Below, one piece after another: positions 8,340 to 64,000 of a DNA stretch of 64,000 nucleotides (positions are counted from its first letter, which is position 1; every line of letters starts with the position of its first letter). Origin of the DNA: an uncultured Gammaproteobacteria bacterium (GTDB lineage: Bacteria > Pseudomonadota > Gammaproteobacteria > Steroidobacterales > Steroidobacteraceae); contig CAVQJL010000012.1 in assembly GCA_963712815.1 (NCBI GenBank), positions 925,027 to 989,026 of the forward strand, in the 5' to 3' direction. The translations under genes were made by a program, and so were the position numbers. Below the pieces are notes generated by a model. The model was given only the letters and a program-made list of their open reading frames with translations. It ran no database searches and was not told the DNA's origin.

Positions 8340-8618
8340 CTTCGGTTCGCCGGGACTGGGGCTCGAGAGGTCGGCGGTTACGAACCGGTCCGCGATCACC
8401 CGGCTTCGGACATCGCAACGATACATGGAGACGCCAGCGTGATCACCGTGGGGATTGGGGGGATCAGTATCGGGAGACGATCATGAGGTACCGGATTCTC
8501 GACCGGCGGCGGTTGGCGGGGCGCGCGGCGGTCGCACGGCGGGGATTGCACACCGGCCGTGGAGCCGGTATCCATCGGCCTGCGAATGGCCGGGTATCCC
8601 ACCCTGGAGCGAAAGATC

Positions 8619-10028: not shown

Positions 10029-10128
10029 CTGGGCCCGACCCGTCAGCGAAGGACGAGTCGCGATTCCGATCGCAAACGCTTGATTTCCTTTGCGGTGCGG
10101 GGTGGGCGGAGACGCCGGTACGCGACTC

Positions 10129-11682: not shown

Positions 11683-11685
11683 AGG

Positions 11686-47633: not shown

Positions 47634-49019
47634 TCAGCTTCCTGACTCGACCTTGCGCATTTCGCGCAGCGTCACGAACTCCTCGGCCGCGGTCGGGTGG
47701 ATGGCCACGGTCGCGTCGAACTGTTCCTTCGTGAGCCCCGCCTTCACCGCGATCGCAATGCCCTGGATGATCTCCGGCGCATCGGGCCCGACCATGTGCG
47801 CGCCCACCACGCGCTGGCTCGCCTCGTCCACCACGAGCTTCACGAGCGTGCGCTCGTTGCGCCCGGAGAGCGTGTACTTGAGCGGACGAAAGGTGGTGGC
47901 ATAGACCTCCACCTTGCCGAACGCGGCTTCCGCGTCCGCCTCCGACAGTCCGACAGTCCCGACAGGCGGCTGGCTGAACACGGCCTGCGGCACGTCCCGA
48001 TGATCGACCGCAACGCGGCGGCGGCCGAACAGCGTGGTCGCGAGCGCCGCCCCCTCGCGGATGGCGACCGGCGTGAGGGCGATGCGATCGGTGACGTCGC
48101 CCACCGCGTGGATGTTCGGCACGCTGCTGGTGGAGTACCCGTCCACGGATACCGCGCCCTGCGCGTCGAGGACGACACCCACCGCTTCGAGTCCGAGGCC
48201 CGCAGTCGCGGGCCGGCGACCGACTGCAAACATCACGGCGTCGGCCTCGACCTGCTCCGCTCGCCCGGCGGTCGTGAGCGCGGCGAGGAGCGAGCCGTCC
48301 GCACGTCGCTCGATGCGGGTGAGATGGCTCTGCAGTCGCACGTCGAGGCCCTTCAGAACGAGCTCGTGGTGCAGGTGCCTGCGCACGTCGTCGTCGAAAC
48401 CGCGCAGGATCTGCTCGCCCCGATAGGCCAGCGTCACCCCGGCGCCGAGGCCGTGGAAGATCCCTCCGAACTCGACGGCGATGAAGCCCCCGCCGACGAT
48501 CAGCACGCGACCCGGGAACTCGGGCAACTGGAACGCTTCGTTCGAGGTGATCGCCAGCTCGGCACCCGGAATCGCGGGACGGACCGGCTGCCCGCCCGTG
48601 GCGATCAGGATGTGCGCGGCCGTGAAGCTCCGCTCCGCGACCTGCACCGTGTGGCGGTCGACCAGCGTGGCGTGCCCCTCGATGAGCGCGACACCGGCCG
48701 CCTTGAGCAGCGTCCGGTAGATGTCCTCGAGGCGGGTGATCTCGCGGTCCTTGTTGGCGATGAGCGCGGGCCAGGAGAAGCTCGCCTCGGCGGTCCAGCC
48801 GTAGGCCGCCGCGTCCTCGAGGTCGTCGCGGAAGTGAGCGGCGTACACGAGCAGCTTCTTCGGCACGCAGCCGCGGATGACGCAGGTGCCTCCGGGCCGG
48901 TAGGACTCGGCGATGGCGACCCGCGCGCCGAACCCGGCCGCCACGCGGGCCGCCCGCACGCCGCCCGAGCCGGCGCCGATCACGAACAGGTCGTAGTCGA
49001 ACTGCGCCGGCCCCGTCAC
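47634..49019 (-). CDS. gor: Glutathione-disulfide reductase
   Basis: It has DLFVIGAGSGGVRAAR, the redox-active GGTCVIRGCVPKK, and the C-terminal dimerisation HPTAAEE. Confidence 0.88.
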   Translation of the reverse strand: MTGPAQFDYDLFVIGAGSGGVRAARVAAGFGARVAIAESYRPGGTCVIRGCVPKKLLVYAAHFRDDLEDAAAYGWTAEASFSWPALIANKDREITRLEDIYRTLLKAAGVALIEGHATLVDRHTVQVAERSFTAAHILIATGGQPVRPAIPGAELAITSNEAFQLPEFPGRVLIVGGGFIAVEFGGIFHGLGAGVTLAYRGEQILRGFDDDVRRHLHHELVLKGLDVRLQSHLTRIERRADGSLLAALTTAGRAEQVEADAVMFAVGRRPATAGLGLEAVGVVLDAQGAVSVDGYSTSSVPNIHAVGDVTDRIALTPVAIREGAALATTLFGRRRVAVDHRDVPQAVFSQPPVGTVGLSEADAEAAFGKVEVYATTFRPLKYTLSGRNERTLVKLVVDEASQRVVGAHMVGPDAPEIIQGIAIAVKAGLTKEQFDATVAIHPTAAEEFVTLREMRKVESGS

Positions 49020-49468
49020 GACTCCTCGGCACCGAACGTAGTGAGCAGCCGGCGCGCACCCGCCTCGATCTGGTCCATCATCACGGCAAAGCCGTCGGCC
49101 TCGCCGAAGTACGGGTCGGGCACCTCGCGGTCACCGAGGAAGAGTTCCATGCGCACGGCGCTCCCGGCCGGTAGGCGCTGCTCGAGCTGCCGCAGGTTGT
49201 CGCGGTCCATCGCGAGTATCAGGTCGGTGGTGGCGAAGTCCTCCGCGGCGATCTCGCGGCAGCGAAAGGCGCCGAGGTCGTAGCCGCGCGCCTCGCAGGC
49301 CGCGATGGTTCGCGGGTCGGCGGTGTCGCCGGCGTGCTTGTCCTTGAGGCCGGCGGAGGCGAACGACACGCGCCCTTCGAGAGTCGCATCGCGGGCCAGT
49401 TTGCGGCACACCGCTTCCGCCGCCGGCGAACGGCAGTAGTTGCCCGCATCAACGAACAGGATCTTCAT
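49016..49468 (-). CDS. Low-molecular-weight phosphotyrosine phosphatase / ArsC-fold protein with Asp at the nucleophile Cys position
   Basis: MKILFVDAGNYCRSP contrasts with the canonical V-C-x-G-N-x-C-R-S. LILAMD and VPDPYF are conserved. There are 4-nt overlaps with both dctP (upstream) and gor (downstream). Confidence 0.7.
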   Translation of the reverse strand: MKILFVDAGNYCRSPAAEAVCRKLARDATLEGRVSFASAGLKDKHAGDTADPRTIAACEARGYDLGAFRCREIAAEDFATTDLILAMDRDNLRQLEQRLPAGSAVRMELFLGDREVPDPYFGEADGFAVMMDQIEAGARRLLTTFGAEES

Positions 49469-50511
49469 TTGACTCCTCCGTCGTTCTGCTCACACGCGGT
49501 CACCGCCGCGTCGAGGCGCTCCAGCCATTCGGGACCGTAGCGATTGGCGTACCAGTCGCGCAGACCCCGGGTAGCGGCGCGGAACTGCCCGCGCTGCTCC
49601 GCCGTGATCTCGTCCACGGTACCGCCCGAGGCGCGAAATGTCTCGAACGCCGGCGCCTGCCGGCTCGCGGCGGCCTCGCGCGTGGCGAGCGCAAGCACTC
49701 GAAAACCCTCGGCCACGACGGGCTTGAGATCCTCGGGCAGCGACTGCCACTGCTTTTCCGAGTACCACCACATCGCGCCCATGTAGCTGTGACGGTCCAC
49801 CAGCAGGAAGCGCACGTGCTCGTGCAGCTTCATGCCCACCACGTCCTGCACGCTGTTCTTGGTGCCGTCGAGCAGCCCGGCGGAGAGCGCGTAATACACC
49901 TCCGACCACGGCAACGGCGTCGGGCTGCCGCCCAGCGCCCGCACCATCTCCTGCTCGAGGGCCGAGGGCAGCGTGCGGATCCTCAGGCGGTCGAGGTCCG
50001 CGGGCGAGCGGATGCGCTTGCGGGTCGTCGCAAAGCTGCGCCAGCCGCCCGTGTTGCCCACGGCCATGAGCCGCAGGCCGAGGCCCTGGCCCAGGATCGA
50101 CTGACCTATCTCGTCGAGCAGCGGTCCGTCCATCACGCACTCGGCCACGGCGTCGTCCGCGAAAGTGTAAGGCAGGTCGAGCACCTGCGCGGGCCCGAAC
50201 AGCGCCGCGAGCCCGCCGAACGTCGTCTGGTGCATCTCGAGCATGCCGCCCTGCAGCGCCTCGATGCACTCGCGCTCGCTGCCGCAGTACTGCCCCGACG
50301 GGAAGACCTGCACAGAGACCCGGCCGCCGGCCGCCGCCTCGACGCTGTCCTTGAACGCCATGGCGCCCACGTAGTCCTCGTCGTCGCTGGAGGCGAGGAA
50401 GGCGATTCGGATCGTGATCTCGGCGCGCTCGGCGCGCGACGTGTACACGCCCGCCGCGCAGACGGCCAGGATCAGCAGGAGCAGCACGCGCATGAGCACC
50501 GGGTTCGTCAC
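49465..50511 (-). CDS. dctP: TRAP transporter substrate-binding protein (DctP family)
   Basis: It has a signal peptide and a DctP-like pattern ...GNTGGWRSFATTRKRIRSPADLDRLRIRT.... Confidence 0.8.
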   Translation of the reverse strand: MTNPVLMRVLLLLILAVCAAGVYTSRAERAEITIRIAFLASSDDEDYVGAMAFKDSVEAAAGGRVSVQVFPSGQYCGSERECIEALQGGMLEMHQTTFGGLAALFGPAQVLDLPYTFADDAVAECVMDGPLLDEIGQSILGQGLGLRLMAVGNTGGWRSFATTRKRIRSPADLDRLRIRTLPSALEQEMVRALGGSPTPLPWSEVYYALSAGLLDGTKNSVQDVVGMKLHEHVRFLLVDRHSYMGAMWWYSEKQWQSLPEDLKPVVAEGFRVLALATREAAASRQAPAFETFRASGGTVDEITAEQRGQFRAATRGLRDWYANRYGPEWLERLDAAVTACEQNDGGVK

Positions 50512-50518
50512 GGCGCCG

Positions 50519-51808
50519 TCACTGGATCAGCCCGAGCCAGCGCGGCAGCGCCAGCGTGAGCGGCGGGAAGAACGTGACGAGCAGCAGCACCGCGATCTCG
50601 ACGGCGAGGAACGGCAACATGGCGCGCACGATGCTCTCGACGCGCACGCCGGCCACCGAGGAGGTGACGAACAGCACCAGTCCCATCGGCGGCGTGGCGA
50701 GCCCGAGTGTCAGGTTGATGCACATGACCAGCGCGAAGTGCACCGGGTGAACGCCCATCTCGACGAAGATCGGCGCCAGCACCGGCCCGAGGATCAGGAT
50801 GGCCGGGCCGGCGTCGAGAAACATCCCGATCAGCAGCAGCAGGACGTTGACCAGGAACAGCAGCACCGTTGGGTCGTCGCTGATCCTGAGCATCGCACTG
50901 GCGATGCCTTCCGCCATGCCGGACACCGTCACCAGCCACGCGAAGGTGACCGCGGCGCCTACGAGCATCAGGATGACGCCCGACTGCATGGCGGTGGCGA
51001 CGAAGATGCGTCGCATCTCGGCGAAGTCGACGGTTCGAAGGACGAAGGGCGCGACGATGATCGCGTAGCCGGCCGCGACGGCGGCAGCCTCGGTGGCGGT
51101 GAAATAGCCGGAGAGCATGCCGCCGAGCAGGATGACCGGCATCACGAGTGCCAGCGCCGCCTTGCGGAAGGCCAGCCCGCGCTCGCGCCAGGTTGCGCGC
51201 GGCGACGCGACGGGGAGGTCGTTCCGCGTTGCGAGGATGCGCGTCGTGAGCATGAGCCCGAGGCCGATCATGATCCCCGGCACCACGCCCGCGGCGAACA
51301 GCGCGCCGATGGATACGTTCATCACGAAGCCGTACAGCACCATGATGCCGGACGGCGGGATGATGGGCCCGATCACGGCCGCCGCCGCCGTCACGGCGGC
51401 CGCGAAGCTGCGCTTGTAGCCGTTCTGCTCCATCGCCGGCACCAGCATCTTGCCGATGGCGGAGGCATCGGCGACCGCCGAGCCCGAGATGCCCGCGAAC
51501 AGCATCGAGGACAGTATGTTCACCTGCGCGAGTCCGCCGCGGAAGTGGCCGATCAGCGACTGGCTGAAGTTCACGATCGAGCGGGTGATACCGCCCGAGT
51601 TCATGAGCTCGCCGGCGAGGATGAAGAACGGCACGGCGAGCAGCGGGAAGCTGTCCACGCCGTTGTAGAAGCGCGAGAGCAGCGAGGCGAAGAACTGCCG
51701 CTGGTCGTCGAGCACGAGGCTCAGGCCCGGCCCGATCAGCAGCGCGAAGACGACCGGCGTGCCGAGCGCGAGCAGCGCGATGAACAGCCAGAAGAAGGCC
51801 GTGGACAC
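50519..51808 (-). CDS. dctM: TRAP transporter large permease (DctM family)
   Basis: GTG start at 51808. The product is 429 aa and polytopic, with FFILAGELMNSGGIT and SGSAVADASAIG motifs. Confidence 0.85.
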   Translation of the reverse strand: MSTAFFWLFIALLALGTPVVFALLIGPGLSLVLDDQRQFFASLLSRFYNGVDSFPLLAVPFFILAGELMNSGGITRSIVNFSQSLIGHFRGGLAQVNILSSMLFAGISGSAVADASAIGKMLVPAMEQNGYKRSFAAAVTAAAAVIGPIIPPSGIMVLYGFVMNVSIGALFAAGVVPGIMIGLGLMLTTRILATRNDLPVASPRATWRERGLAFRKAALALVMPVILLGGMLSGYFTATEAAAVAAGYAIIVAPFVLRTVDFAEMRRIFVATAMQSGVILMLVGAAVTFAWLVTVSGMAEGIASAMLRISDDPTVLLFLVNVLLLLIGMFLDAGPAILILGPVLAPIFVEMGVHPVHFALVMCINLTLGLATPPMGLVLFVTSSVAGVRVESIVRAMLPFLAVEIAVLLLVTFFPPLTLALPRWLGLIQ

Positions 51809-51813
51809 CGCCC

Positions 51814-52368
51814 TCAGTCCTCGATCACGGCGGGCATGGCGCCTTCCATGACGATTCCGGAGGGCCCGCCGGCAAGGTGCAGCAGCAGCCGGCCGATGAG
51901 TTCGATGCCGACCAGGATCAGCATGGCGAACGCGGTCGGAACGATCGCGTAGATCCACGCCATCTTGATCTCGAGGGTCGAGGCCATGATCTCGAGTCCG
52001 CGTCGCCAGAAGGCGAAGCTCTCGATGAAGAGCACCGCGAGGATCCAGACGATGAGGCCGTTGAGCACGAGGCTGGCGAAGGCGAGCAGCCGCGGCGGGA
52101 GCGCTTCGGCGAACGACACGATCGCGACGTGTGCACCCTTGCGGTAGGCGAAGGGCGCGACCAGCAGCACCGACCAGACCAGCGCCACCCGCGCCAGTTC
52201 CTCGGCCCAGTCGAGCGAGTAGTGGAACACGCCCCGGGACACGATCTGGGCGAGCGCGAGGAGAAGCATCACCGCGAGCAGTGCGCCGGCGAGGTTGCGG
52301 GCGGCCAGCGCGAGCGGGCCGTTCACGCGGCCGAGCGCCCGGACAAACCCCGTGAGCAACGATTTCAT
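51814..52368 (-). CDS. dctQ: TRAP transporter small permease (DctQ family)
   Basis: It has four TM helices and lies immediately upstream of dctM. An alternative start lies at 52380. Confidence 0.75.
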   Translation of the reverse strand: MKSLLTGFVRALGRVNGPLALAARNLAGALLAVMLLLALAQIVSRGVFHYSLDWAEELARVALVWSVLLVAPFAYRKGAHVAIVSFAEALPPRLLAFASLVLNGLIVWILAVLFIESFAFWRRGLEIMASTLEIKMAWIYAIVPTAFAMLILVGIELIGRLLLHLAGGPSGIVMEGAMPAVIED

Positions 52369-52477
52369 GCGCCGGGCCACTCCCCCGCGACGGAACCCAC
52401 CGACAACGCGGGCCGCCCGGGGGCGGCCTGCGCCGGATTATGGGCCAGGCCGCGCCGGGGCGACGCGGCCGACGTCG

Positions 52478-54859
<2,382 letters not shown>

Positions 54860-54954
54860 GGTCTGATCTCCCCCAGGACTGTTGTCGATGTATTGCGCCG
54901 CTGCCGCTGGCGCGGCACGGATTCCTGATACGAATAACGTAGCATGAGATTTCT

Positions 54955-54981
54955 ATGTCTTACAACCCTTATATAAGACAT
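54955..54981. promoter_or_regulatory. Candidate GntR/HutC operator in the TBDR promoter: inverted repeat ATGTCTTA-N11-TAAGACAT containing CTTATATAAGAC (54968-54979)
   Basis: The arms are exact reverse complements. The same 12-mer recurs at 61361-61372. It sits in an AT-rich island in about 70% GC DNA, about 100 nt upstream of the TBDR start. Confidence 0.55.
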
Positions 54982-55005
54982 CTGAGACCAGACAAGCGCG
55001 TCGTT

Positions 55006-55048
55006 GCCGGCCTGACCGCGCAATCCAGTCGCGCGGCGCCCGGCCGGC
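55006..55048 (-). terminator. Compound GC hairpin after the GH31 gene (terminator/attenuator-like, no U-run)
   Basis: The outer arms GCCGGCC/GGCCGGC enclose inner arms CCGCGC/GCGCGG. It lies between the GH31 stop (55112) and the operator. Confidence 0.35.
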
Positions 55049-55111
55049 GACGGCGTCGGCTCCACTCCAGTGAAAGTGCAGGCCCCGTCTGCGGGCGGCT
55101 GCGGGTCGATG

Positions 55112-57181
55112 CTAGACGGCGCGCCAGGTCTCGACGACCTCGGGCAGCTCGCCGAGCTCGCCCGTGTGGCGCACCGTGGGGCCGAGCGGGATCTCGGCGC
55201 CGCGCCGCGCGAATACGGCGAGCTCGTCGAGCGCGAGCACGAGGTCGTGGGTTCGCCCGCCCTCGAGAGGCTCGCCGCCCGCAAAGCGGCGCCACTCGCC
55301 CTCGGGCAGGTAGACGCGCACTCGCCCGCCGGGGTTCAGGCAGGGCGCGACGAGCAGATCCTCCCCGCAGAAGAACTGGTGGTCGAAGCCCCAGGCCTCC
55401 GGCTCGTCCGGGCAGGCCAGCGCCATGGCGCGCTGCATCGGCAGGCCGGTCGCACTCGCCTCCTCGACCGTTCGCCACAGGTACGGCAGCAGCCGGTAGC
55501 GCAGTTCCAGCGCAGCCATCGCGGCGCGCTCCGCCTCCGGGCCGTAGGACCAGGGCTCGCGGGCGCCGATGCCGTGCAGGCGCATGTGGGCGGAGAACAC
55601 GGACGCCTGCGCCCAGCGCACGTACAGCTGTGGATCGCGCCGGTCGCCGTAGAAACCGCCGACGTCGGTCGCGTAGAACGGCGCGCCGGTGAGGCCCCAC
55701 GAGAGGCCACCGCGGATGCTCGCCGCGAGGCCGCCCCAGTCGGCCTGCGGGTCGCCGCCCCACTGCGAGGGATAGCGCTGAGAACCCGCCCAGGCAGCGC
55801 GGCTGAACAGGAAGGCCCCGTCCTTTCCATAGCGGCTCGCCGCCTCGTACACGCAGCGGTTGTAGAGCAGCGCATAGACGTTGTGCAGCGCGTCGCCCTG
55901 CGCGCCGTCGGACGCCACCATGTGCGGCTCGACCTGCTCGCCGAAGTCCGGCTTGATCATGTCCACGCCGAGCTCGAACAGCTCCCGGTGGCGATCGCGC
56001 CAGTAGGCATAGGCGTCGGGTTGCGTGAAGTCGAGCAGGCCCGACTCCGGCAACGGCGTCAGTACCGCGCCGAAGGGCTCGAGGTCCCACTGGTAGCGAT
56101 ACGCTTCGCCGCTGCGGGCATCCTTGAGCAGCCAGCCCTTGTCCGCCAGCTCGGCGAACAGCGGGTTGCGCACCGACACCAGTGGGTACTCCCACACGCA
56201 CACGCGGAAATCGAGCGTCTTGATCTCGGCGATTACCGCCCGCGGATCAGGGTAGCGGACCGGATCCCACTCGAACGCGAAGCGCGTATCGGTGTCCTGC
56301 CAGGCACGCCCGTCGAAGGTGATCGTGTCGCAAGGCATGCCGCGCTCGCGCACTTCCCGCGCGACCGCGAGGATCTCCTCGGCGGTGCGGTAATAGGCCT
56401 TGGAGAGGATCACCCCCAGGCTCCACAGCGGCGGAACGGGCGCACGCCCCGTCAGCGCGGTGTACTGGCCGAGGACCTGGGCACCGTTCGCGCCGTCGAG
56501 CACGAACAGGTCGAGCGAGGGTGAGTCCACCTTGAGGGCGTAGGCCCGCTGCGACCACGGCGCGTATCCCACGCCGTGCACGACCGGGGCCACGGTGTGC
56601 ACGAACACGCCCCAGCCTTCCGGGCTCCAGGCGAAGGGCGCGTTCTTGTAGCTCGCCTCGGCGTTCACGCCGAGCGCGTCGTGGTTGTACGAGCGCACGA
56701 GCTGCCCGCGCCGGTCGAGGCGACCCCACTTTTCGCCGAGGCCGTACACCGGCGTGTCGTGGCCGAGCTCGAGGCTCACGAGCCAGCCGTCACCGAGCCG
56801 TGCGAAGGGCGGCAGGCGGAAGCGGCGCACGAAGTGCCCGTCGCCCGGGGACGACTGCACGGCGCGCCCCGACACCGTCAGCGCAAACGAGAGCGGCGCA
56901 TGGCCGATCTCGAGCACACGCTCGCCGGCCACGAGCCGCGTGCCACCCTCGATGGCTTCGACGCGCGACGTGAGCACCGCGGGCTCGCGAACGAGTATCC
57001 CGTAGTCGCGTGCGTCGGGCCCGAGGCGCAGGCGCAGGCCGGACTCGAGCATCGCGACCCGCAGGATCCCGGCATCCGTCGGAATCGCGACGCTGCCGTC
57101 CGGCTGCACGGCGGGGGCGGCGGTCACGTGCACCGGCGGGATGCGCCCCCAGTTCGGCGCCTCGACGTCGAACGCGCCCAC
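55112..57181 (-). CDS. GH31-family alpha-glycosidase (YicI-like architecture)
   Basis: It has FEWDPVRYPDP and CVWEYP, the nucleophile box GVDMIKPDFGE, and the acid/base region FYATDVGGF. GTG start lies 2 nt after the isomerase stop. Confidence 0.85.
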   Translation of the reverse strand: MGAFDVEAPNWGRIPPVHVTAAPAVQPDGSVAIPTDAGILRVAMLESGLRLRLGPDARDYGILVREPAVLTSRVEAIEGGTRLVAGERVLEIGHAPLSFALTVSGRAVQSSPGDGHFVRRFRLPPFARLGDGWLVSLELGHDTPVYGLGEKWGRLDRRGQLVRSYNHDALGVNAEASYKNAPFAWSPEGWGVFVHTVAPVVHGVGYAPWSQRAYALKVDSPSLDLFVLDGANGAQVLGQYTALTGRAPVPPLWSLGVILSKAYYRTAEEILAVAREVRERGMPCDTITFDGRAWQDTDTRFAFEWDPVRYPDPRAVIAEIKTLDFRVCVWEYPLVSVRNPLFAELADKGWLLKDARSGEAYRYQWDLEPFGAVLTPLPESGLLDFTQPDAYAYWRDRHRELFELGVDMIKPDFGEQVEPHMVASDGAQGDALHNVYALLYNRCVYEAASRYGKDGAFLFSRAAWAGSQRYPSQWGGDPQADWGGLAASIRGGLSWGLTGAPFYATDVGGFYGDRRDPQLYVRWAQASVFSAHMRLHGIGAREPWSYGPEAERAAMAALELRYRLLPYLWRTVEEASATGLPMQRAMALACPDEPEAWGFDHQFFCGEDLLVAPCLNPGGRVRVYLPEGEWRRFAGGEPLEGGRTHDLVLALDELAVFARRGAEIPLGPTVRHTGELGELPEVVETWRAV

Positions 57182-57182
57182 G

Positions 57183-58580
57183 TCAGGCGAGCTCGAGCAC
57201 GGGCAGGTTCCAGCGCGCGGCGATGGCCCTGAGCGCCGGCTTGTGGTCGCCGTACGCGAGCGCGAAATGGTGTTCGAGCCCCTCCTCCATGATGGTGCGG
57301 CCCACGTCGGCCGCCGGCCGGTCGAACCTGACCGTGCCCGAGCATCCCGTGAACGCCATCGGCGCGCGGATCACCTCGGCTCCCGCGATCATGAGCTTGG
57401 TCTCGTTGCGCGCGCGCGAGAGCCGCGCCAGCGTCACGCGGCCCGGCTTGATGGGGAACTGGTGCAGCAGCGGCATCCTGCGGTTGGTGTGGATGGTCGC
57501 TTCCGCGTGCGCTTGGGGATCGCGCATGGAGATCGGGGCGAGCCCGCAGTGCCAGAGCACCGCCGTGTCGTCGGCGGGCGTGATATCCACGAGGTCGGCC
57601 ATCCAGGCGGGCTCGCCGGCGAGTTCCTGCAGCATCAGCTGCGACAGCGAGCCGTGCACGTCGGCCTCGCAGGCCGCGGGCACCTGCTTCTGGTTCATCA
57701 TCGCCATCGGGCCGCAGGCGGCGCAGCCGTACTCGGTGAACATCTCCGGCCAGCAGCGCACCGCGAGCCCGCTGGCGTGGCTCTCCTGCTGCACGTCCTC
57801 GAGCGCGCAGAAGACGCGGAACGAGCGGTCGAGCTGCTCCTGGTCCACGTCGTCGAGCCCTTCGAGCTCCGCCGCGGCGCCGGCGCGCGCCGCGCCGACC
57901 CGTGCCGGGTCCATCGCGCGGGCCTTGTCGAACAGCTCCCCGAGCTGCACGGTCTCGACGCGCATGCCGGCGAGGTCGAACAGCAGCTTTTCGTCGTATT
58001 CGCAGGTATCGAAACCGTCGGGATGCCTTCCGACGACGGCGATCTTCGCGCCGCGCAGCGAGTCGAGCACGCGCTGGGCCGCGGGGTCCGCACTCGCCTG
58101 CGCCGGACGCGCACGCGACGGCACGCTCACCGCCGGCGTGGCAAGCGCGCGCAGGCTGGACGCGAGACCCGGCGCGTCGGGCGCCGCGTACAGCCAGCCG
58201 TGCGGCACGCCGGCCCGGCCGAGCGCATGCGCCGCGAGGTTGAGCCCGCAGTAGGCATTGAGACGCAAGCGTCCGCCGATGCGCGGCTCGGGCACGGCCC
58301 AGATCGCGATCGGCGTGGTCGCCTCCTTCGCGAGCTTCACGGTCATCGTCGCGTCCGTGAAAGTGATCTGAAGGATCAGCAGCAGGTCGATCGGCCCCGC
58401 GGAGCGGATCTGCGCCACGGCCCGCTCGGCCGCGGCGCGGTCGAACAGCAGCTCGCGCGGACCGACCGTGCGGATGCCGGCCGCCTCGAGCGCCGCGAAA
58501 GCCCGCGTCTTCATGTCCTCCGCGAAGGGGACGTCGAATGTGGGGCGCGCCAGCACCGCCACGCCGTAGGTCAGCGACAT
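57183..58580 (-). CDS. L-fucose/L-arabinose isomerase-family protein (sugar aldose-ketose isomerase, substrate unknown)
   Basis: GGAGG lies 5 nt upstream of ATG at 58580. The translation contains ...CWPEMFTEYGCAACGPMAMMN...CEADVHGSLSQ..., typical of the fucose-isomerase-like fold. Confidence 0.65.
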   Translation of the reverse strand: MSLTYGVAVLARPTFDVPFAEDMKTRAFAALEAAGIRTVGPRELLFDRAAAERAVAQIRSAGPIDLLLILQITFTDATMTVKLAKEATTPIAIWAVPEPRIGGRLRLNAYCGLNLAAHALGRAGVPHGWLYAAPDAPGLASSLRALATPAVSVPSRARPAQASADPAAQRVLDSLRGAKIAVVGRHPDGFDTCEYDEKLLFDLAGMRVETVQLGELFDKARAMDPARVGAARAGAAAELEGLDDVDQEQLDRSFRVFCALEDVQQESHASGLAVRCWPEMFTEYGCAACGPMAMMNQKQVPAACEADVHGSLSQLMLQELAGEPAWMADLVDITPADDTAVLWHCGLAPISMRDPQAHAEATIHTNRRMPLLHQFPIKPGRVTLARLSRARNETKLMIAGAEVIRAPMAFTGCSGTVRFDRPAADVGRTIMEEGLEHHFALAYGDHKPALRAIAARWNLPVLELA

Positions 58581-58581
58581 G

Positions 58582-59628
58582 TCATCCTCCAAAGCCGGCA
58601 TATGCGTGCCGGAAGCTCGAGTCCGCGGGCTCGACGCGCGCGCCGCCCGGCCCGAAACAGGGGTGCGCGTGCCACGGCCTCGCCGCCGCGTCGGTCAGCG
58701 AATTGAGTCCGCGCATGTAGGGGACGGCTTCCCCGCGAAGCTCGTCGCGTATGCCGTCCCAGTCGGGAAACCGCTGGAACGCCGCGAGCCAGATCGCGCG
58801 GCCCGCCAGGTAACCGGACGCACCCGCCGCGTACGCGTAGTGCAGCACGCGCTTGAATTCGTCCATCCCCGCTCCGGCCGACAGCATCACCCAGGGGCGG
58901 CCCGCGGCGTGATCGAGCTCGTGGAACAGTGCCTGCACGGCCTGCGATCCCGGCGCGCCGGGCTCCGGCACGTCACCCGCCGGCACCGGGCTCTCGAGCT
59001 TGAACAGGTCCACGCCGAAGCGCGGGTCGGCAAAGGCGCGCACGCTGTCGATGACGAGCCCGGCCTGCTTCGTCTTCATCTCGACGTAGTCACGCGTCTG
59101 CTCGGCGTCGCCCGCGAGCGGGTACACGAGCAGCTCGAAGACGAAAGGAATGTCGTAGCGCCTGCAGGCCTCGCCGATCCGGCGAGTGAATTCCTGCTGC
59201 GCGGCGCAGACCGCGGGGTCGCCGTCCGGACGGTACCAGGTGAGCACCTTCACGGCGTCGCCGCCCGCGCGCTTGATCTTCCCGACCGACCAGTCGTCGA
59301 TCTCCGAGGACAGTCGGCCGCCCGCCGTCTCCTGGAAGATCGAGTCCTCGAGGGTGAGGATGAGTCCGAGCCGCGCGTCGAGCATCGTGACGCCGCGCGG
59401 ATAGGCGTAATGCGGGTCGAGCAGCATCGCCGAGGACTCGCCCTGCAGCTCGCGGATCAGCAGCTCCTTGAAGCGCGCGACGTCCTCCCACGGAGCCTCG
59501 GGCGTGCCGCGCTTCGCCCTGATTGGATTCTTGATCGGTGGGCGCTGGTCCACCGCCGTCATCTTGTAGCGCCCGGCCGCATCCGCCATGCGGCGCATGC
59601 CCCAGTACTTGCCTGCGGAAACCGTCAT
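58582..59628 (-). CDS. Class I aldolase of the DeoC/LacD (tagatose-bisphosphate / YihT-like) family
   Basis: The N-terminal pattern is ...RMADAAGRYKMTAVDQRPPI... It also has VKVLTWYRPD and FKLESP, and is 348 aa. Confidence 0.65.
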   Translation of the reverse strand: MTVSAGKYWGMRRMADAAGRYKMTAVDQRPPIKNPIRAKRGTPEAPWEDVARFKELLIRELQGESSAMLLDPHYAYPRGVTMLDARLGLILTLEDSIFQETAGGRLSSEIDDWSVGKIKRAGGDAVKVLTWYRPDGDPAVCAAQQEFTRRIGEACRRYDIPFVFELLVYPLAGDAEQTRDYVEMKTKQAGLVIDSVRAFADPRFGVDLFKLESPVPAGDVPEPGAPGSQAVQALFHELDHAAGRPWVMLSAGAGMDEFKRVLHYAYAAGASGYLAGRAIWLAAFQRFPDWDGIRDELRGEAVPYMRGLNSLTDAAARPWHAHPCFGPGGARVEPADSSFRHAYAGFGG

Positions 59629-59649
59629 GTGGGCCCCTTGCGTGTCGTG

Positions 59650-60552
59650 TCAGGCCGCGGGATACGCCGCGAGGAACCCGTCGAGCTCGGCGCGCGTGGG
59701 CGCGCCCGAGCGCCCGCCGGTCCGCTGCACCTTGAGTGCGGCGGCCGCGGAGGCGAAGCAAACTGCCGCGGCCTCGTCGCGGCCCTCGGCCAGCGCCAGC
59801 GCGAAGGCACCGTGCCAGACGTCGCCCGCACCGAGCGTGTCCACCACGGGCACCGCGAAGGCCGGGAATCGGCTCAGTTCGCCTTTGTCGAGCGCGTACA
59901 CGCCCTCGGCGCCCGCGGTGACGGCGCACCAGCCCGGCAGGTCACGCCCGACCTCGACGAGCGCGCGCGCGGGATCGTCGATGCCGCTGAAGTCGGCGAG
60001 CGCGTCGGCCGAGAAGGCCACGTGAGAGGCCTCCCGCAGCAGCGCACCGTCGGCCGGAACCGGGCGGTCGGCGTCGAGCACGCCCGGGAGGCCCGCGGCG
60101 CGGGCCTCGAACAGCGCCGCGAGCGCACCCTCGGGCCAGCGCGTGTCGACGAGCACCACGTCGGCGCCGGTGACCCACGGAGCCGGAAGCCAGTCCGGGT
60201 CGGCTGGCAGAGCGGCATCGAGGTGGTTGACGATCATGCGCTCGCCGCGGGCGTCCACGATCACGGCGGAGACGGACGATGCGCAACCCGCGCAGCGCCG
60301 CACCAGCGTGCAGTCCACGTCGTACGACTGGAGCTCGGCGATGATCATGTCGGCCGCGGCATCCTCGCCGACCCGCGCGGCCAGCATCGCGCGCCCGCCG
60401 AGCAGCGCGATTGCTGCCGCCGCCGTCGCGGCGGGCCCGCCGCCCACGCTCTCGAAGCGCGTCGCCCGGAACTTCCTGGCCTGTTGCGGCAGCTCGGGCA
60501 CGGTGAACACGAAGTCCTGCACTGCATGGCCAACGCACAGCACGGTCGGCAT
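59650..60552 (-). CDS. PfkB-family sugar(-phosphate) kinase
   Basis: It has VGGGPAATAAAAIALLG and GERMIVN, and the anion-hole/catalytic box DTLGAGDVWHGAF. GAGGGA RBS is present. Confidence 0.85.
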   Translation of the reverse strand: MPTVLCVGHAVQDFVFTVPELPQQARKFRATRFESVGGGPAATAAAAIALLGGRAMLAARVGEDAAADMIIAELQSYDVDCTLVRRCAGCASSVSAVIVDARGERMIVNHLDAALPADPDWLPAPWVTGADVVLVDTRWPEGALAALFEARAAGLPGVLDADRPVPADGALLREASHVAFSADALADFSGIDDPARALVEVGRDLPGWCAVTAGAEGVYALDKGELSRFPAFAVPVVDTLGAGDVWHGAFALALAEGRDEAAAVCFASAAAALKVQRTGGRSGAPTRAELDGFLAAYPAA

Positions 60553-60563
60553 GGAAGCGTCCC

Positions 60564-61286
60564 TCAGGACAGGGTGACGGCGTACACGAGTTGCGTCGTG
60601 TCGCAGCGGCTCGCGCGCCATTCCACCCGCACGCCTTCGAGCGACAGCGCCACGCGGTCGATGTGCAGCAGGGGCGAACCCGGCTCGAGCTTGAGCCGGC
60701 GACAGTCCTCCTTGCGGGCGGTATCCGCTCGCAGTTCCTCCTCGGCCGAGACGATGTTGACCCCGTACTCGCGCTGGTACAGCGCGTACAGCGCATTCGG
60801 CAGCGGGGCGTGTTTCTCGAACCCGGCGAACACCGCCGCCGGCAGGACGATCTTCTCGAGGACGACGGGCTCGCCGTCCACGAGCCGCATGCGGTTGATC
60901 TCGAACACGTCGGCTCCGGGCTCCAGGGCGAGCCGCGCGACGTCGGCGGCGCGTGCCGGGCGGCGCTTGAGCGTGTCCCCGGCGCTCGTCGGCACGGCGC
61001 GCGATCCGCCGCCGGGCCGGGTGAGCCGGAAGAAGCGGAACAGCGCCCGCTCCTGCGTGTGTTCGGCGACGTACGTGCCCTTGCCCTGCCGGCGGTCGAT
61101 GAGGCTGTCGGCCGCGAGCGCGTCGAGCGCCTTGCGTACCGTGCCCTGGCTGACGTTCAGTCGCCCGGCGAGCGCCTGTTCCGAGGGCAGCGCCTCGCCG
61201 GGGCCCCACTCGCCCGTCGCGATCTGCTTCACGAGGAACTCGTAGACCTGCTGGTAGAGGGGCCGGTAGCGTGGTGACTCGTCCAT
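60564..61286 (-). CDS. GntR-family transcriptional regulator, HutC subfamily (wHTH + UTRA)
   Basis: The N-terminal part reads PLYQQVYEFLVKQIATGEWGPGEALPSEQALAGRLNVSQGTVRKALDAL, and a UTRA-like C-terminus follows. GGGAGA RBS precedes ATG at 61286. An alternative start lies at 61346. Confidence 0.85.
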   Translation of the reverse strand: MDESPRYRPLYQQVYEFLVKQIATGEWGPGEALPSEQALAGRLNVSQGTVRKALDALAADSLIDRRQGKGTYVAEHTQERALFRFFRLTRPGGGSRAVPTSAGDTLKRRPARAADVARLALEPGADVFEINRMRLVDGEPVVLEKIVLPAAVFAGFEKHAPLPNALYALYQREYGVNIVSAEEELRADTARKEDCRRLKLEPGSPLLHIDRVALSLEGVRVEWRASRCDTTQLVYAVTLS

Positions 61287-61359
61287 GGGCGGTTCTCCCG
61301 GACCGAGCCCGCATCGTACGCGGCCGCTTGCGCCTGTGTCCATCATCTGCTGTATAGTA

Positions 61360-61371
61360 TCTTATATAAGA
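61360..61371. promoter_or_regulatory. Perfect 12-bp palindrome TCTTATATAAGA in the divergent gntR / suyA-like promoter (candidate operator)
   Basis: It is self-complementary and shares CTTATATAAGAC with 54968-54979. It sits in an AT-rich patch between starts at 61286 (minus) and 61413 (plus). Confidence 0.6.
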
Positions 61372-61412
61372 CTAGACGGCCCATGCCGGCCGTCCCCTAC
61401 GGAGGACCCTGC

Positions 61413-61700
61413 GTGACCACCCCCCACCTGCTCGTGCACGACCCGAAGGACAACGTCGGCGTAGTGGTCGTCGAGGGCCTCGAGGCCGGCACCGAGATGC
61501 TGTGCGTCGTGACCCACGACAATTCGGACTTCCGCCTCGTGGCGCGGCAGGCGGTGCCGATCGGCCACAAGGTCGCGCTCCGGGACCTCGAGGCGGGCGA
61601 CACCGTGATCAAGTACGGCCAGGACATCGGCCGCATCGTCGCCGACGTCAGCCAGGGCGAGCACGTGCACGTCCACAACCTCAAGACCAAGCGCTGGTAA
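61413..61700 (+). CDS. suyA: SAF-domain small subunit of a split UxaA-type (de)hydratase/lyase; SuyA-like (tentative)
   Basis: GGAGGA lies 7 nt upstream of GTG at 61413. The product is about 95 aa and reads [11 protein letters not shown]...[20 protein letters not shown] (SAF). It is followed by the large subunit. Confidence 0.55.
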
Positions 61701-61713
61701 ACGGAGGCCCACC

Positions 61714-62886
61714 ATGAGCACGGGCAAGAAGATCTGGGCCTACCGCCGCGAGAACGGCCGCGTCGGCGTCCGCAACCACGTCGCCATCCTCCCGGTGGAC
61801 GACATCTCGAACGCCGCCTGCGTGGCTGTGGCGAACCACATCCAGGGCACGATCGCGCTGCCCCACGCCTATGGACGCCTGCAGTTCGGCGAAGACCTCG
61901 AACTGCACTTCCGCACCATGATCGGCACCGGCGCCAATCCGAACGTGGCCGCCTGCATCGTGATCGGCATCGAGCCGGGCTGGACGCAGAAGATCGTCGA
62001 CGGCATCGCCGCCACCGGCAAGCCCGTCGCGGGCTTCTGGATCGAGGGCAATGGCGACATCGCCACCATCGCCGCCGCCTCGCGGAAGGCCAAGGAGTTC
62101 GTGCACCAGACCTCCGGCCTGGTACGCGTCGAGTGCGACCTCGAAGAACTGTGGATCGCGGCCAAGTGCGGCGAATCCGACACGACGACCGGGCTTGCCT
62201 CCTGCCCCACCGTCGGCAACATGTACGACAAGCTGGTCCCGGCCGGGCTCTATGGCTGCTTCGGCGAGACGTCGGAACTGACCGGCGCCGAGCACCTCGC
62301 CGCCGCGCGCGCCGCGACCCCGGAGGTGCGCGAGAAGTTCATGAAGACCTGGCAGGCCTACCAGGACGACGTGATCGAGGCGCACAAGACCTCCGACCTC
62401 TCCGACAGCCAGCCCACCAAGGGCAACATCGCGGGCGGCCTGACCACGATCGAGGAAAAGGCGCTCGGCAATCTCGAGAAGATCGGCAAGAAGGTGAGCT
62501 TCATCGACGTGCTCGAACCCGCCGAGGCGCCGGCGCGCGGCCCGGGCCTGTACTTCATGGACACCTCGTCGGCCGCGGCGGAGTGCTGCACGCTGCAGGC
62601 GGCCGCGGGCTACGTGCTGCACATCTTCCCGACCGGCCAGGGCAACGTGATCGGCAACCCGATCATGCCGGTCATCAAGGTCACGGGTAATCCGCGCACG
62701 GTCCGGTTAATGTCCGAGCACGTGGACGTGGACGTCTCCGGGATCGTGCGCCGCGAGATGACCATCGACCAGGCGGGTGACGCGCTGATCGACATGATCG
62801 TGCACACCGCGAACGGCCGCTACACGGCGGCCGAGGCACTCGGCCACCAGGAATTCGTGATGACCAAGCTTTACCGGAGCGCCTGA
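61714..62886 (+). CDS. suyB: UxaA/GarD C-terminal-type large subunit; SuyB-like (R)-sulfolactate sulfo-lyase candidate (tentative)
   Basis: The product is 390 aa and reads [21 protein letters not shown]... with several Cys typical of Fe-dependent UxaA-family enzymes. The gene architecture is split. Confidence 0.55.
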
Positions 62887-62892
62887 CCCGCG

Positions 62893-63912
62893 ATGAGCGA
62901 GCCCGTCCGACTGGCTCTCGCAGAGGCCGAGGCGCTCGCCTGCGAGGCTCTCGCCGCCAGCCGCACGAGCACCGCTAACGCGCAGGCAACCGCGCGCGCG
63001 CTGGTCGCCGCGGAAGCCGACGGCCAGGCCGGCCACGGCCTGTCGCGCGTGCCCTCCTACGCGCTGCAGGCGCTGGCCGGCAAGGTCGACGGCCACGCGA
63101 CGCCGCGAATCGCGCAGGTCGCAGGGGCCGCGCTGCGCGTGGACGGCGGCTTCGGCTTCGCCTACCCGGCCATCGACCTCGCGATCGCGGCGCTGGCGCC
63201 GCTCGCGCACGAGCACGGCATCGCGGTCGCCGCCCTCCACCGCTCGCACCACTTCGGCCAGGCGGGCGCGCATGCCGAGCGGCTGGCCGAACGCGGCCTC
63301 GTCGCGATCGTGCTCGGCAACTCGCCCAAGGCCATGGCCTTCTGGGGCGGCCGGCGGCCGACACTCGGGACCAACCCCCTGGCTTTCGGCGCGCCCCTGC
63401 CGGGCGGCGCCGATCCGCTCGTGATCGACCTCGCGATGTCGGTGGCGGCCCGCGGCAGGATCGTCGCCGCCGAAAAGGCCGGCAAGCCGATCCCGGGCGA
63501 CTGGGCCGTCGACGCGCAGGGCCGCCCGACCACCGACCCGAAGGCCGCGCTCGGCGGCACGCTGCTGCCGATCGGCGGCGCCAAGGGTGGCGCGCTGGCA
63601 CTGATGATCGAGATCCTCGCGGCAGCGGTCACGGGCGGCGCCTTCGGCTGGGAGGCGAGCTCGTTCTTCGACGACCAGGGCGGCCCACCGAACATGGGCC
63701 ACGTGCTGATCGCGCTCGACCCGGGGCGGCTGTCCGCCGGCCGGTACGATGAGCGCATGGCGACCCTGCTCGCGGCCATCGCCGCCGAGCCGGACGCCCG
63801 CCTGCCGGGCACACGCCGCCTCGCGAACCGCGCGCGTGCGGCGGCAAACGGCATCGCCATCCCGGCAGCGCTGCACGACGAGATCCGCGCACTCGTCGAG
63901 CGGCCCGCCTGA
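62893..63912 (+). CDS. Ldh_2-family (malate/L-sulfolactate-type) NAD(P)H-dependent oxidoreductase, ComC-like
   Basis: It has GHGLSRVPSY, SHHFGQAGAHAERLA, NPLAFGAP and GGAKGGALALMIE, patterns of the Ldh_2 family. Confidence 0.7.
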   Translation: MSEPVRLALAEAEALACEALAASRTSTANAQATARALVAAEADGQAGHGLSRVPSYALQALAGKVDGHATPRIAQVAGAALRVDGGFGFAYPAIDLAIAALAPLAHEHGIAVAALHRSHHFGQAGAHAERLAERGLVAIVLGNSPKAMAFWGGRRPTLGTNPLAFGAPLPGGADPLVIDLAMSVAARGRIVAAEKAGKPIPGDWAVDAQGRPTTDPKAALGGTLLPIGGAKGGALALMIEILAAAVTGGAFGWEASSFFDDQGGPPNMGHVLIALDPGRLSAGRYDERMATLLAAIAAEPDARLPGTRRLANRARAAANGIAIPAALHDEIRALVERPA

Positions 63913-63944
63913 ACGCCCCGGCCGCGCCGGTTCGGAGACCCGTC

Positions 63945-64000
63945 ATGCCCGAGATCGTCATAACCGAATTCATGGACGAGGCTGCCATCGAGGCCCATTT
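63945..64000 (+). CDS. 5' end of a D-isomer-specific 2-hydroxyacid dehydrogenase-like gene (partial, runs off the window)
   Basis: GGAG RBS is present. Only MPEIVITEFMDEAAIEAH is visible, which resembles the N-termini of PGDH-like 2-hydroxyacid dehydrogenases. Confidence 0.4.
   Translation, partial: MPEIVITEFMDEAAIEAH

Follow-up and report, generated by a model that had tools for sequence, protein, structure and literature searches.

A GntR-controlled gene cluster of an uncultured Steroidobacteraceae bacterium probably links sulfoquinovose glycoside cleavage and sulfoglycolysis to sulfolactate desulfonation

Introduction

Can one bacterium, out of one regulon, take up a glycoside of sulfoquinovose (SQ), cleave the sugar by sulfoglycolysis and also release the sulfur of the C3 sulfonate formed? 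The question is raised by a gene cluster in a 64,000-nucleotide stretch of DNA (the window, to which all positions below refer) from an uncultured gammaproteobacterium of the family Steroidobacteraceae (GenBank assembly GCA_963712815.1, contig CAVQJL010000012.1, positions 925,027 to 989,026, forward strand). SQ is a plant sulfosugar produced on the gigatonne scale, and its mineralisation is usually seen as a two-step community process in which primary degraders excrete sulfolactate or 2,3-dihydroxypropane-1-sulfonate (DHPS) and specialists carry out the desulfonation. Genes for sulfoglycolysis and desulfonation are described as "rarely co-inherited" (PMC13436972), and their presence together in one bacterium has been called "unusual" (PMC12421959). 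An earlier note, made from the letters of the stretch, had proposed a single regulon combining glycoside uptake and cleavage, an isomerase-kinase-aldolase trio of the Embden–Meyerhof–Parnas (EMP) kind and sulfolactate desulfonation. Residue tests and comparative genomics support this proposal. The cluster is understood, with good probability, as a regulon under GntR control by which an SQ glycoside, most likely sulfoquinovosyl glycerol, would be completely catabolised.

Results

Layout of the cluster

All genes listed in the earlier note were found again, in place or nearly so, by open reading frame (ORF) listing and profile searches against Pfam and NCBIfam. Within the window, of about 70% G+C, a GntR/HutC gene heads a minus-strand operon for a PfkB kinase, a DeoC/LacD aldolase, a fucose-isomerase-like protein and a GH31 α-glycosidase, and the operon is as nearly spacerless as had been noted, with 11, 21, 1 and 1 nt between successive genes. 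After a gap of 252 nt behind GH31 follow, each borne out by its ORF and profile match, a TonB-dependent receptor (TBDR), the dctQMP genes of a tripartite ATP-independent periplasmic (TRAP) transporter, a gene resembling low-molecular-weight protein tyrosine phosphatase (LMW-PTP) and gor. Divergent from the regulator operon, across an intergenic region of 96 nt, lie the pair of SAF and UxaA-type genes, an Ldh_2 dehydrogenase and the start of a 2-hydroxyacid dehydrogenase, likewise as first described.

To the left of gor a scan of ten genes met only unrelated ones (NamZ, a DAO-family oxidoreductase, YhhN, a radical SAM protein and others), and the cluster is therefore taken to extend from about 49.0 kb to past 64.0 kb. 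Searches of the 64 kb by tblastn gave no GabD-like aldehyde dehydrogenase, SuyZ/YeiH exporter, GlpK, GlpD, TauD-type dioxygenase, aldo-keto reductase (AKR) or SulP. The hairpin reported downstream of GH31 is present as a GC-rich stem-loop; its folding is no more stable than that of shuffled sequence (z = -0.32) and it has no U-tract, and we rejected it as a meaningful terminator.

For comparison, one genome per GTDB species was scanned for relatives of the GH31 protein; of 351 stretches found to encode one, the best 80 (60-91% identity) were kept. The 80 loci belong to Steroidobacteraceae, Nevskiaceae and other Gammaproteobacteria, and to Caulobacterales, Parvularculaceae, Sphingomonadales, Azospirillaceae, Halieaceae, Cellvibrionales, Paraglaciecola and Colwellia. 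Those that have the EMP-type cluster all stem from metagenome-assembled genomes. Gene content was tallied by tblastn with all window proteins, and 52 loci had enough flank for it.

A GH31 protein probably of the SqgH clade

The nature of the glycoside is approached first through the GH31 enzyme (55112 to 57181, minus strand), which comprises three GH31 domains. Its identity is 36% to YicI and 29% to YihQ, in agreement with its earlier description as YicI-like rather than YihQ-like, and a YicI-like look is what is expected of SqgH. This sulfoquinovosidase clade, characterised in December 2025 in Alteromonas macleodii, is formally near GH31_3 and is active on the p-nitrophenyl (PNP) glycoside PNP-SQ and on sulfoquinovosyl glycerol while inactive on PNP-Xyl and PNP-Glc; it has no YihQ Q/E-RWY motif, uses R302, T377, K412 and F513 of the A. 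macleodii enzyme (AmSqgH), and was delimited at ≥50% identity to AmSqgH (PMC12780224). The window protein has R300, T375, K410 and F510 at these sites, as mapped indirectly through the numbering of a Paraglaciecola (Alteromonadaceae) ortholog, whose R301, T376, K411 and F512 are shifted at each site by a constant offset, +1 relative to the window protein and -1 relative to AmSqgH. The four residues are invariant in six aligned GH31 proteins, namely the window protein and five orthologs, and T375 lies in a loop missing from both YicI and YihQ. The catalytic D412 and D477 align with D416/D482 of YicI and D405/D472 of YihQ.

The earlier note had held that lack of the YihQ Arg/Trp/Tyr triad would speak against SQ cleavage. 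The triad is indeed absent, its R301/W304/Y508 columns being occupied by D298/F301/F510, but this yardstick is invalid because SqgH itself is without that triad (PMC12780224). A YihQ-type (GH31_13) identity was rejected on the missing triad, the 29% identity and a YihQ model score of 206 bits, the cutoff being 553. The opposite possibility is that the locus serves ordinary carbohydrates, with an α-xylosidase or α-glucosidase, a ketose kinase and aldolase, and a sugar-acid dehydratase of altronate/galactarate type. It draws on the automatic names of homologs ("alpha-xylosidase", "UxaA family hydrolase") and on YicI being the best curated GH31 model; the YicI score, however, is 426 bits where the cutoff asks for 606, and the YicI pocket is replaced throughout, W315 by R300, C307/F308 by G291/A293 and W380 by E368. 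A YicI-type α-xylosidase (GH31_3) was rejected on these grounds.

The genomic company kept by the protein points the same way. Its orthologs of 60-70% identity adjoin a TauD-type dioxygenase with AKR and SulP, a YihS-family gene, the EMP trio, or SuyAB with glycerol genes, and because one GH31 orthologous group occupies four independent SQ-related contexts, the case for assigning the window protein to the SqgH sulfoquinovosidase clade is strong. Orthologs in Alteromonadaceae, Colwelliaceae and Cellvibrionales are 60-64% identical, and most of those loci have genes of the SQ dioxygenase (SDO) route; several marine Gammaproteobacteria show the order GntR, AKR, TauD-family dioxygenase, SulP, GH31, SSF symporter, TBDR, which is the sulfo-SDO layout. 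In Azospirillaceae the neighbours of the GH31 gene are GntR-SuyAB-Ldh_2, a YeiH-type exporter, a 2-hydroxyacid dehydrogenase, glycerol kinase and GlpD. A YihS-family (PF07221) gene directly precedes the SqgH-like GH31 (69% identical) of Nitrospirillum amazonense BR 11880 (L040, ~8269-12052), and the GH31 of Nitrospirillum sp. BR 11164 (L041) is 70% identical to that of the window; within 10 kb neither locus has other genes of the window cluster.

Kinase, isomerase and aldolase

The PfkB-family kinase (59650 to 60552, minus strand) was compared with YihV, whose sulfonate triad K27-N109-R138 and other sulfofructose-binding residues have been defined (PMC8006165). Its best match in the Protein Data Bank (PDB) is the E. 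coli sulfofructose kinase 7ag6 (7e-60, 206 bits), ribokinases reaching at most 93 bits, and in pairwise alignment it is 42% identical to EcYihV with all seven described sulfofructose-binding residues kept. K33, N115 and R144 correspond to the triad, and D19, S101, D168 and the catalytic D250 (GXGD) to D13, S95, D162 and D244. The kinase, which had been put forward as the YihV counterpart, is a true YihV homolog by these measures and a predicted sulfofructose kinase. Its intact sulfonate triad tells further against an ordinary carbohydrate locus.

For the FucI-like isomerase (57183 to 58580, minus strand; Fucose_iso_C), NCBIfam returned a single match, NF048012 "sulfoquinovose isomerase SftI", aligned end-to-end at 3.7e-79 and 266 bits against an equivalog cutoff of 700. 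A PDB search found no solved homolog. The protein is an SftI homolog and likely an ortholog given its gene context. The earlier expectation of a non-YihS isomerase is borne out in that the enzyme is FucI-like; such an isomerase is not new, the enzyme probably belonging to the known SqvD/SftI family, whose role, together with hybrid clusters that swap SqvD/SftI for YihS, has been described (PMC9594981).

The aldolase (58582 to 59628, minus strand; DeoC/LacD in Pfam) is a class I (Schiff-base) enzyme of the LacD-like PRK12858 subfamily ("tagatose 1,6-diphosphate aldolase"; 328 bits against a cutoff of 184), proposed here as sulfofructose-1-phosphate aldolase. Its PDB matches are 8tnf (1e-94; about 52% identical as judged by eye from the alignment), LacD (~1e-41) and YihT (1e-19). 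Identity to YihT is 32% when the pair is aligned by MAFFT and 26-30% among the tblastn matches that entered the tally. K210, the counterpart of the YihT Schiff-base Lys193, and R277, the counterpart of R253 in the phosphate/sulfonate pocket of YihT, are conserved, probably as general features of the superfamily, and S227 is replaced by Ala. In the tally the aldolase always occurs together with the kinase and the isomerase. The described types of sulfofructose-phosphate aldolase are YihT and the class II SqiA (PMC10665668); the window enzyme is likely a sulfofructose-phosphate aldolase that is strictly of neither type, and points to a third. The entry 8tnf, deposited as "DUF2090 domain-containing protein" and with no publication found by literature text searches, may already be a structure of this LacD-like type.

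The aldolase is also where a different sulfosugar has to be considered. The same architecture could process glycosides of sulfofucose (6-deoxy-6-sulfo-galactose) or of another 6-sulfohexose by way of sulfotagatose-1-phosphate, as the subfamily name and the distance from YihT (26-32% identity) would allow, and a PfkB/PF01791 pair beside SuyAB in Paracoccus wurundjeri has been discussed as a possible sulfotagatose route (PMC12421959). Set against this, the GH31 protein keeps all four SQ residues of AmSqgH and its orthologs sit in sulfo-SDO clusters that have been shown to act on SQ (PMC12780224), and the kinase keeps D19 and S101, whose YihV counterparts contact O3/O4 of sulfofructose. Sulfofucose is moreover rare and the cluster very widespread. 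Configuration at C3/C4 is a feature about which LacD-type aldolases are lax. A sulfosugar other than SQ is thus quite unlikely to be the true substrate, and SQ remains the preferred one.

Putative desulfonation genes and the right flank

The divergent operon opens with a SuyA-like small subunit (61383 to 61700, plus strand; 105 aa), a SAF-domain protein that matches the galactarate dehydratase N-terminus. Its orthologs are called at 95 aa, and the true suyA start may be GTG at 61413. After 13 nt follows a UxaA-type protein without a SAF domain, the SuyB-like large subunit (61714 to 62886, plus strand; 390 aa; GD_AH_second and GD_AH_C, UxaA/GarD), and this split arrangement is that of SuyAB. 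SuyB is 74-98% identical across related loci, and proteins 88-98% identical to it carry the name "(2R)-sulfolactate sulfo-lyase subunit beta" at JGI, by automated naming. The pair is proposed to be a SuyAB-like (2R)-sulfolactate sulfo-lyase. A sugar-acid dehydratase agrees poorly with a galactarate dehydratase model score of 130 bits against a cutoff of 730 and with the neighbours in annotated loci, which, in line with a check the earlier note had laid out, are sulfonate or glycerol genes and not uronate/aldarate genes. The uronate/aldarate reading was rejected together with that of an α-xylosidase, on cutoffs, pocket residues and locus neighbours, and an ordinary carbohydrate locus is to be regarded as hardly credible.

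The Ldh_2-family dehydrogenase (62893 to 63912, plus strand) has L-sulfolactate dehydrogenase as its best NCBIfam match, with 184 bits below a cutoff of 500; its assignment as ComC-like (sulfolactate/sulfopyruvate) is made from gene context. The last gene (63945 to 64000, plus strand), for an SlcC-like D-2-hydroxyacid dehydrogenase, runs into the window end after 18 codons, and the N-terminus so encoded matches that of a full-length 2-Hacid_dh protein in the closely related locus L009. An Ldh_2 protein and a D-2-hydroxyacid dehydrogenase beside suyAB form the arrangement of the ComC/SlcC pair, their specificity being one that cannot be read from sequence.

The flank past the window was judged from the close relatives L070, L009 and L084/L085, exact-sequence look-ups of the Ldh_2, SuyB-like and GH31 proteins having returned no identical record. 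Of the sulfolactaldehyde dehydrogenase and the sulfite oxidase that the earlier note had suggested looking for to the right, the relatives carry neither there; they have the SlcC-like dehydrogenase followed by GlpD (733 bits) and often by GlpK or a YeiH-type exporter. The presence of GlpD and GlpK in the suy operon fits sulfoquinovosyl glycerol as the natural substrate, as glycerol is released on its hydrolysis. At the end of the suy-glp operon of the closest JGI relatives (L084/L085, 16199-17344), a PF04116 gene of the fatty-acid-hydroxylase family was seen after glpK. A GabD-like aldehyde dehydrogenase, placed between regulator and kinase, was found in only two loci, L032 (5176-6639) and L072 (~5167), the sources being one metagenome-assembled genome (MAG) of Sphingomonadales and one of Parvularculaceae.

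A cultured isolate, Caulobacter sp. KR2-114 (L086, JBMSEC010000001.1 1237144-1258319), appears as another tandem cluster of sulfoglycolysis and desulfonation. Its suy side comprises SuyB (91% identical to that of the window), SuyA, Ldh_2, a 2-hydroxyacid dehydrogenase and a YeiH-type "putative sulfate exporter". The divergent operon is a complete and typical sulfo-Entner–Doudoroff (ED) operon, with an SDR dehydrogenase, an SGL lactonase, an aldose epimerase, an ILVD/EDD dehydratase and an HpcH aldolase, and the locus has a 59% identical GntR regulator and the same operator. For the reading of the window pair as SuyAB, this setting says more than the automated names do.

Regulator, operator and uptake

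Are these parts governed as one? The regulator (60564 to 61286, minus strand) combines a GntR helix-turn-helix (1.8e-21) with a UTRA effector domain (2.6e-30), its start at 61286 being backed by orthologs of 239-240 aa, and is presumed to be the repressor of the whole regulon. The second copy of an AT-rich operator motif reported in the earlier note is there: GTCTTATATAAG, with its core TCTTATATAAGA, a perfect 12-bp palindrome, stands in the divergent region between regulator and suyA (61361 to 61372; site 1), and again upstream of the receptor/transporter operon (54968 to 54979; site 2, matching the palindrome in 11/12 positions). These are the two exact copies in 64 kb; 0.08 occurrences with up to two mismatches would be expected by chance, and 0/100 shuffles reached the observed count.

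Conservation of both partners extends well beyond the window. With up to two mismatches TCTTATATAAGA is found in 71/80 related loci, those of the marine SDO type included, and it is present in L084, L085 and the ED-type Caulobacter locus L086 as well; it usually lies between the GntR gene and suyA and also ahead of the TBDR gene, where most related loci have TCTTATATAAGG/A. Orthologs of the regulator are 52-95% identical in EMP-type loci, 34-48% in marine SDO-type loci and 59% in the ED-type locus, with the same operator in each. The same HutC-type regulator and putative operator therefore seem to govern SQ regulons with three catabolic cores (EMP, SDO and ED), a commonality that supports the single regulon first proposed and suggests, as the effector, SQ or its glycoside. 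Across Alpha- and Gammaproteobacteria the palindrome and its orthologous regulator look like a portable SQ regulator/operator pair, and we found no description in the searchable literature of an operator shared by SQ clusters.

The TBDR (52478 to 54859, minus strand; plug and β-barrel domains) presumably imports sulfoquinovosyl glycerol or SQ. By the tblastn tally it is conserved beside GH31 in EMP-type and marine loci, and the A. macleodii TBDR adjoining SqgH is up 107-fold on SQ (PMC12780224). Profile searches identified the TRAP components DctQ (51814 to 52380), DctM (50519 to 51808) and DctP (49465 to 50511), all on the minus strand. SQ or its glycoside is the favoured TRAP substrate, because the TRAP genes accompany GH31 also in loci that have neither EMP nor Suy genes (L047, L075, L079 and L081).

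These data bear directly on whether two functions could be merely adjacent, with the minus-strand genes performing sulfoglycolysis and excreting sulfolactate or DHPS, and SuyAB with the TRAP transporter serving external sulfolactate, so that hand-over would not be obligatory. TRAP systems are known importers of sulfonates, most clusters have no sulfolactaldehyde dehydrogenase to link the halves, and the Suy module occurs with other front ends too. Yet both promoter regions carry one and the same operator, through which one regulator would control both halves; the TRAP genes go with GH31 even where Suy is absent; and L032 and L072 do carry the GabD-like enzyme. The two halves are, furthermore, found together in 36/52 loci (EMP genes and SuyB), compared with two loci that have SuyB without EMP genes, one with EMP genes only and 13 with neither. 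We consider two uncoupled functions unlikely and retain one regulon serving a continuous route. That 36 related loci carry EMP genes with SuyB also leads us to argue that sulfoglycolysis and desulfonation together are common in uncultured soil and freshwater Proteobacteria.

An Asp-variant LMW-PTP-like protein and gor

The gene between dctP and gor (49016 to 49468, minus strand; LMWPc 1.5e-30) encodes a protein of LMW-PTP fold in which the catalytic Cys is Asp (FVDAGNYCRSP). Where phosphatases have the CX5R(S/T) P-loop it reads D-A-G-N-Y-C-R-S, the fold and the DPY general-acid loop being kept. Asp occupies this position in all 45 orthologs (loci L002-L081; motif FVDAGNY[C/S]RSP); among the 150 best representatives at 50% identity it is restricted to the 10 nearest the query, and solved LMW-PTP homologs all carry Cys. 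The gene is confined to loci with the EMP trio (43/43), and two EMP loci are without it. A LacD-like aldolase 52% identical to that of the window is fused to an Asp-variant PTP-like domain in P0368 (504 aa), one of those 10 nearest representatives; it comes from a single 2-kb metagenome contig and is treated as suggestive only. The link to the aldolase suggests that the protein acts on the aldolase substrate or product. It could possibly hydrolyse sulfolactoyl phosphate arising from a GAPDH-like oxidation of sulfolactaldehyde, and so fill the missing step; possible too are the handling of sulfofructose-1-phosphate or sulfolactaldehyde through a sulfonate-binding P-loop, and service as a stand-in for the absent mutarotase or SqvB. 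No description of the Asp-variant gene, and no relevant pairing of sulfoquinovose with tyrosine phosphatase, was found in the searchable literature.

The glutathione-disulfide reductase gene gor (47634 to 49019, minus strand; 652 bits against a cutoff of 606) shares 4 nt with the LMW-PTP-like gene upstream of it, and co-transcription with the cluster is probable in the window. As a conserved member of the pathway it was rejected, its co-location being confined to the closest relatives L003, L009 and L070. A tie to sulfite stress is possible and speculative.

Discussion

What is observed directly are the families to which the proteins belong, the specificity residues that they keep, synteny and the conservation of the operator; from these we infer the catalytic activities, the transported substrate, the effector and the passage from sulfolactaldehyde to sulfolactate. 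To proceed, the route would have the glycoside carried over the outer membrane by the TBDR and over the inner membrane by the TRAP system, with hydrolysis by the SqgH-type GH31 giving SQ and glycerol. The SqvD/SftI-type isomerase would convert SQ to sulfofructose, the YihV-type kinase would form sulfofructose-1-phosphate, and the LacD-like class I aldolase would split this into dihydroxyacetone phosphate and sulfolactaldehyde. Oxidation of sulfolactaldehyde to (S)-sulfolactate is assigned to an enzyme encoded outside the locus. The SlcC-like and ComC-like dehydrogenases may then invert (S)-sulfolactate via sulfopyruvate, for SuyAB to yield pyruvate and sulfite. Glycerol would be used by GlpK and GlpD, encoded in the same divergent operon in close relatives. 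The HutC-type repressor would sit on TCTTATATAAGA both in the divergent promoter region and ahead of the transport operon, its release being brought about presumably by SQ or a derivative.

Several points weigh against this understanding of the cluster. The sulfolactaldehyde dehydrogenase is absent from the window and from most related clusters (tblastn with the GabD-like protein), a gap also noted for P. wurundjeri (PMC12421959). The assignment of SuyAB draws on the split architecture, automated names and the sulfonate gene context, and sequence gives the Ldh_2 protein no particular likeness to ComC, DpkA and type-2 malate dehydrogenase scoring higher. The residue mapping to AmSqgH is indirect, by way of the Paraglaciecola ortholog. 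The isomerase score lies well under the SftI equivalog cutoff, the aldolase is nearer to tagatose-bisphosphate aldolases than to YihT, and in the cluster the SqvD-type isomerase stands without a mutarotase or SqvB beside it.

Taken with its relatives, the cluster suggests that both steps of SQ mineralisation are performed out of a single regulon, in widespread uncultured Gammaproteobacteria akin to Steroidobacteraceae as well as in several orders of Alphaproteobacteria. It would take the SqgH sulfoquinovosidase beyond its marine sulfo-SDO setting and define a regulator and operator that are portable between SQ regulons, and it draws attention to two concrete gaps, the missing sulfolactaldehyde dehydrogenase and the Asp-variant phosphatase-like protein. 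We advance tentatively, as an idea with the odds against it, that the latter is an unrecognised catalytic component working with the aldolase and, more broadly, that one-regulon tandem clusters are the normal mode of SQ mineralisation in soil and freshwater Proteobacteria. If true, this would run against the two-tier picture of cross-feeding.

Among the known systems, the sulfo-EMP pathway of E. coli (YihQ/R/S/V/T/U, CsqR) shares the logic of glycosidase, aldose-ketose isomerase, 1-kinase and class I aldolase, with a YihV homolog (42%) as kinase and an aldolase from the Pfam family of YihT. The window, in contrast, has an SqgH-type glycosidase in place of YihQ (29%), a FucI-like isomerase in place of YihS and a LacD-like aldolase, neither mutarotase nor sulfolactaldehyde reductase, a GntR/HutC instead of a DeoR regulator, and TBDR and TRAP instead of YihO/P, and its C3 sulfonate would be desulfonated rather than excreted as DHPS. 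A FucI-like isomerase, in the window probably of the SqvD/SftI family, is common to the window, to sulfo-EMP2 (SqvB-SqvD-SqiK-SqiA) and to the EMP1/EMP2 hybrids, in which the mixing of non-orthologous isozymes is already known (PMC9594981, PMC10665668, PMC13372026). Compared with sulfo-EMP2, the kinase is PfkB/YihV and not the PfkA-type SqiK, the aldolase class I LacD-like and not the class II SqiA, the glycosidase SqgH with SqvB absent, and the hosts are Gram-negative soil and freshwater lineages.

The SqgH/sulfo-SDO system of A. macleodii has a GH31 probably of the same clade, the four binding residues and a TBDR beside the glycosidase, and reports of SqgH are limited to the SqoD dioxygenase route of marine Gammaproteobacteria (PMC12780224); orthologous marine loci share the GntR regulator and operator of the window. 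SqgH of the window type differs in that it would feed an EMP route and SuyAB, with hosts among Steroidobacteraceae-like, Caulobacterales, Parvularculaceae and Sphingomonadales genomes. No description of SqgH outside the marine sulfo-SDO context was found in the searchable literature, and no paper among the matches listed connects sulfoquinovose with Steroidobacter, Caulobacter, Parvularcula or Nevskia.

On the desulfonation side, the SuyAB-ComC-SlcC systems of Paracoccus pantotrophus and C. salexigens present the same split SAF and UxaA pair followed by Ldh_2 and a 2-hydroxyacid dehydrogenase, and their YeiH/SuyZ-type exporter recurs in some relatives of the window. The tandem sulfofucolytic-sulfolyase pathway of P. 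wurundjeri (PMC12421959) likewise joins a sulfosugar front end to sulfolactate desulfonation in one organism and, as here, is without a sulfolactaldehyde dehydrogenase. The front end of the window, by comparison, appears to be of EMP type and to act on an SQ glycoside, rather than of ED type and acting on free sulfofucose; its transport is TBDR/TRAP, not ABC or tripartite tricarboxylate transport; and close relatives hold glycerol genes in the same operon. A hybrid of SqgH, SqvD/SftI, YihV and a LacD-like aldolase joined to SuyAB-ComC-SlcC and glycerol genes was not found described in the searchable literature; the earlier note, too, was aware of no description of this exact gene combination. 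Each enzyme family is already known; what is new is SqgH, a hybrid sulfo-EMP set and sulfolactate desulfonation, so assigned from the sequences, within one regulon.

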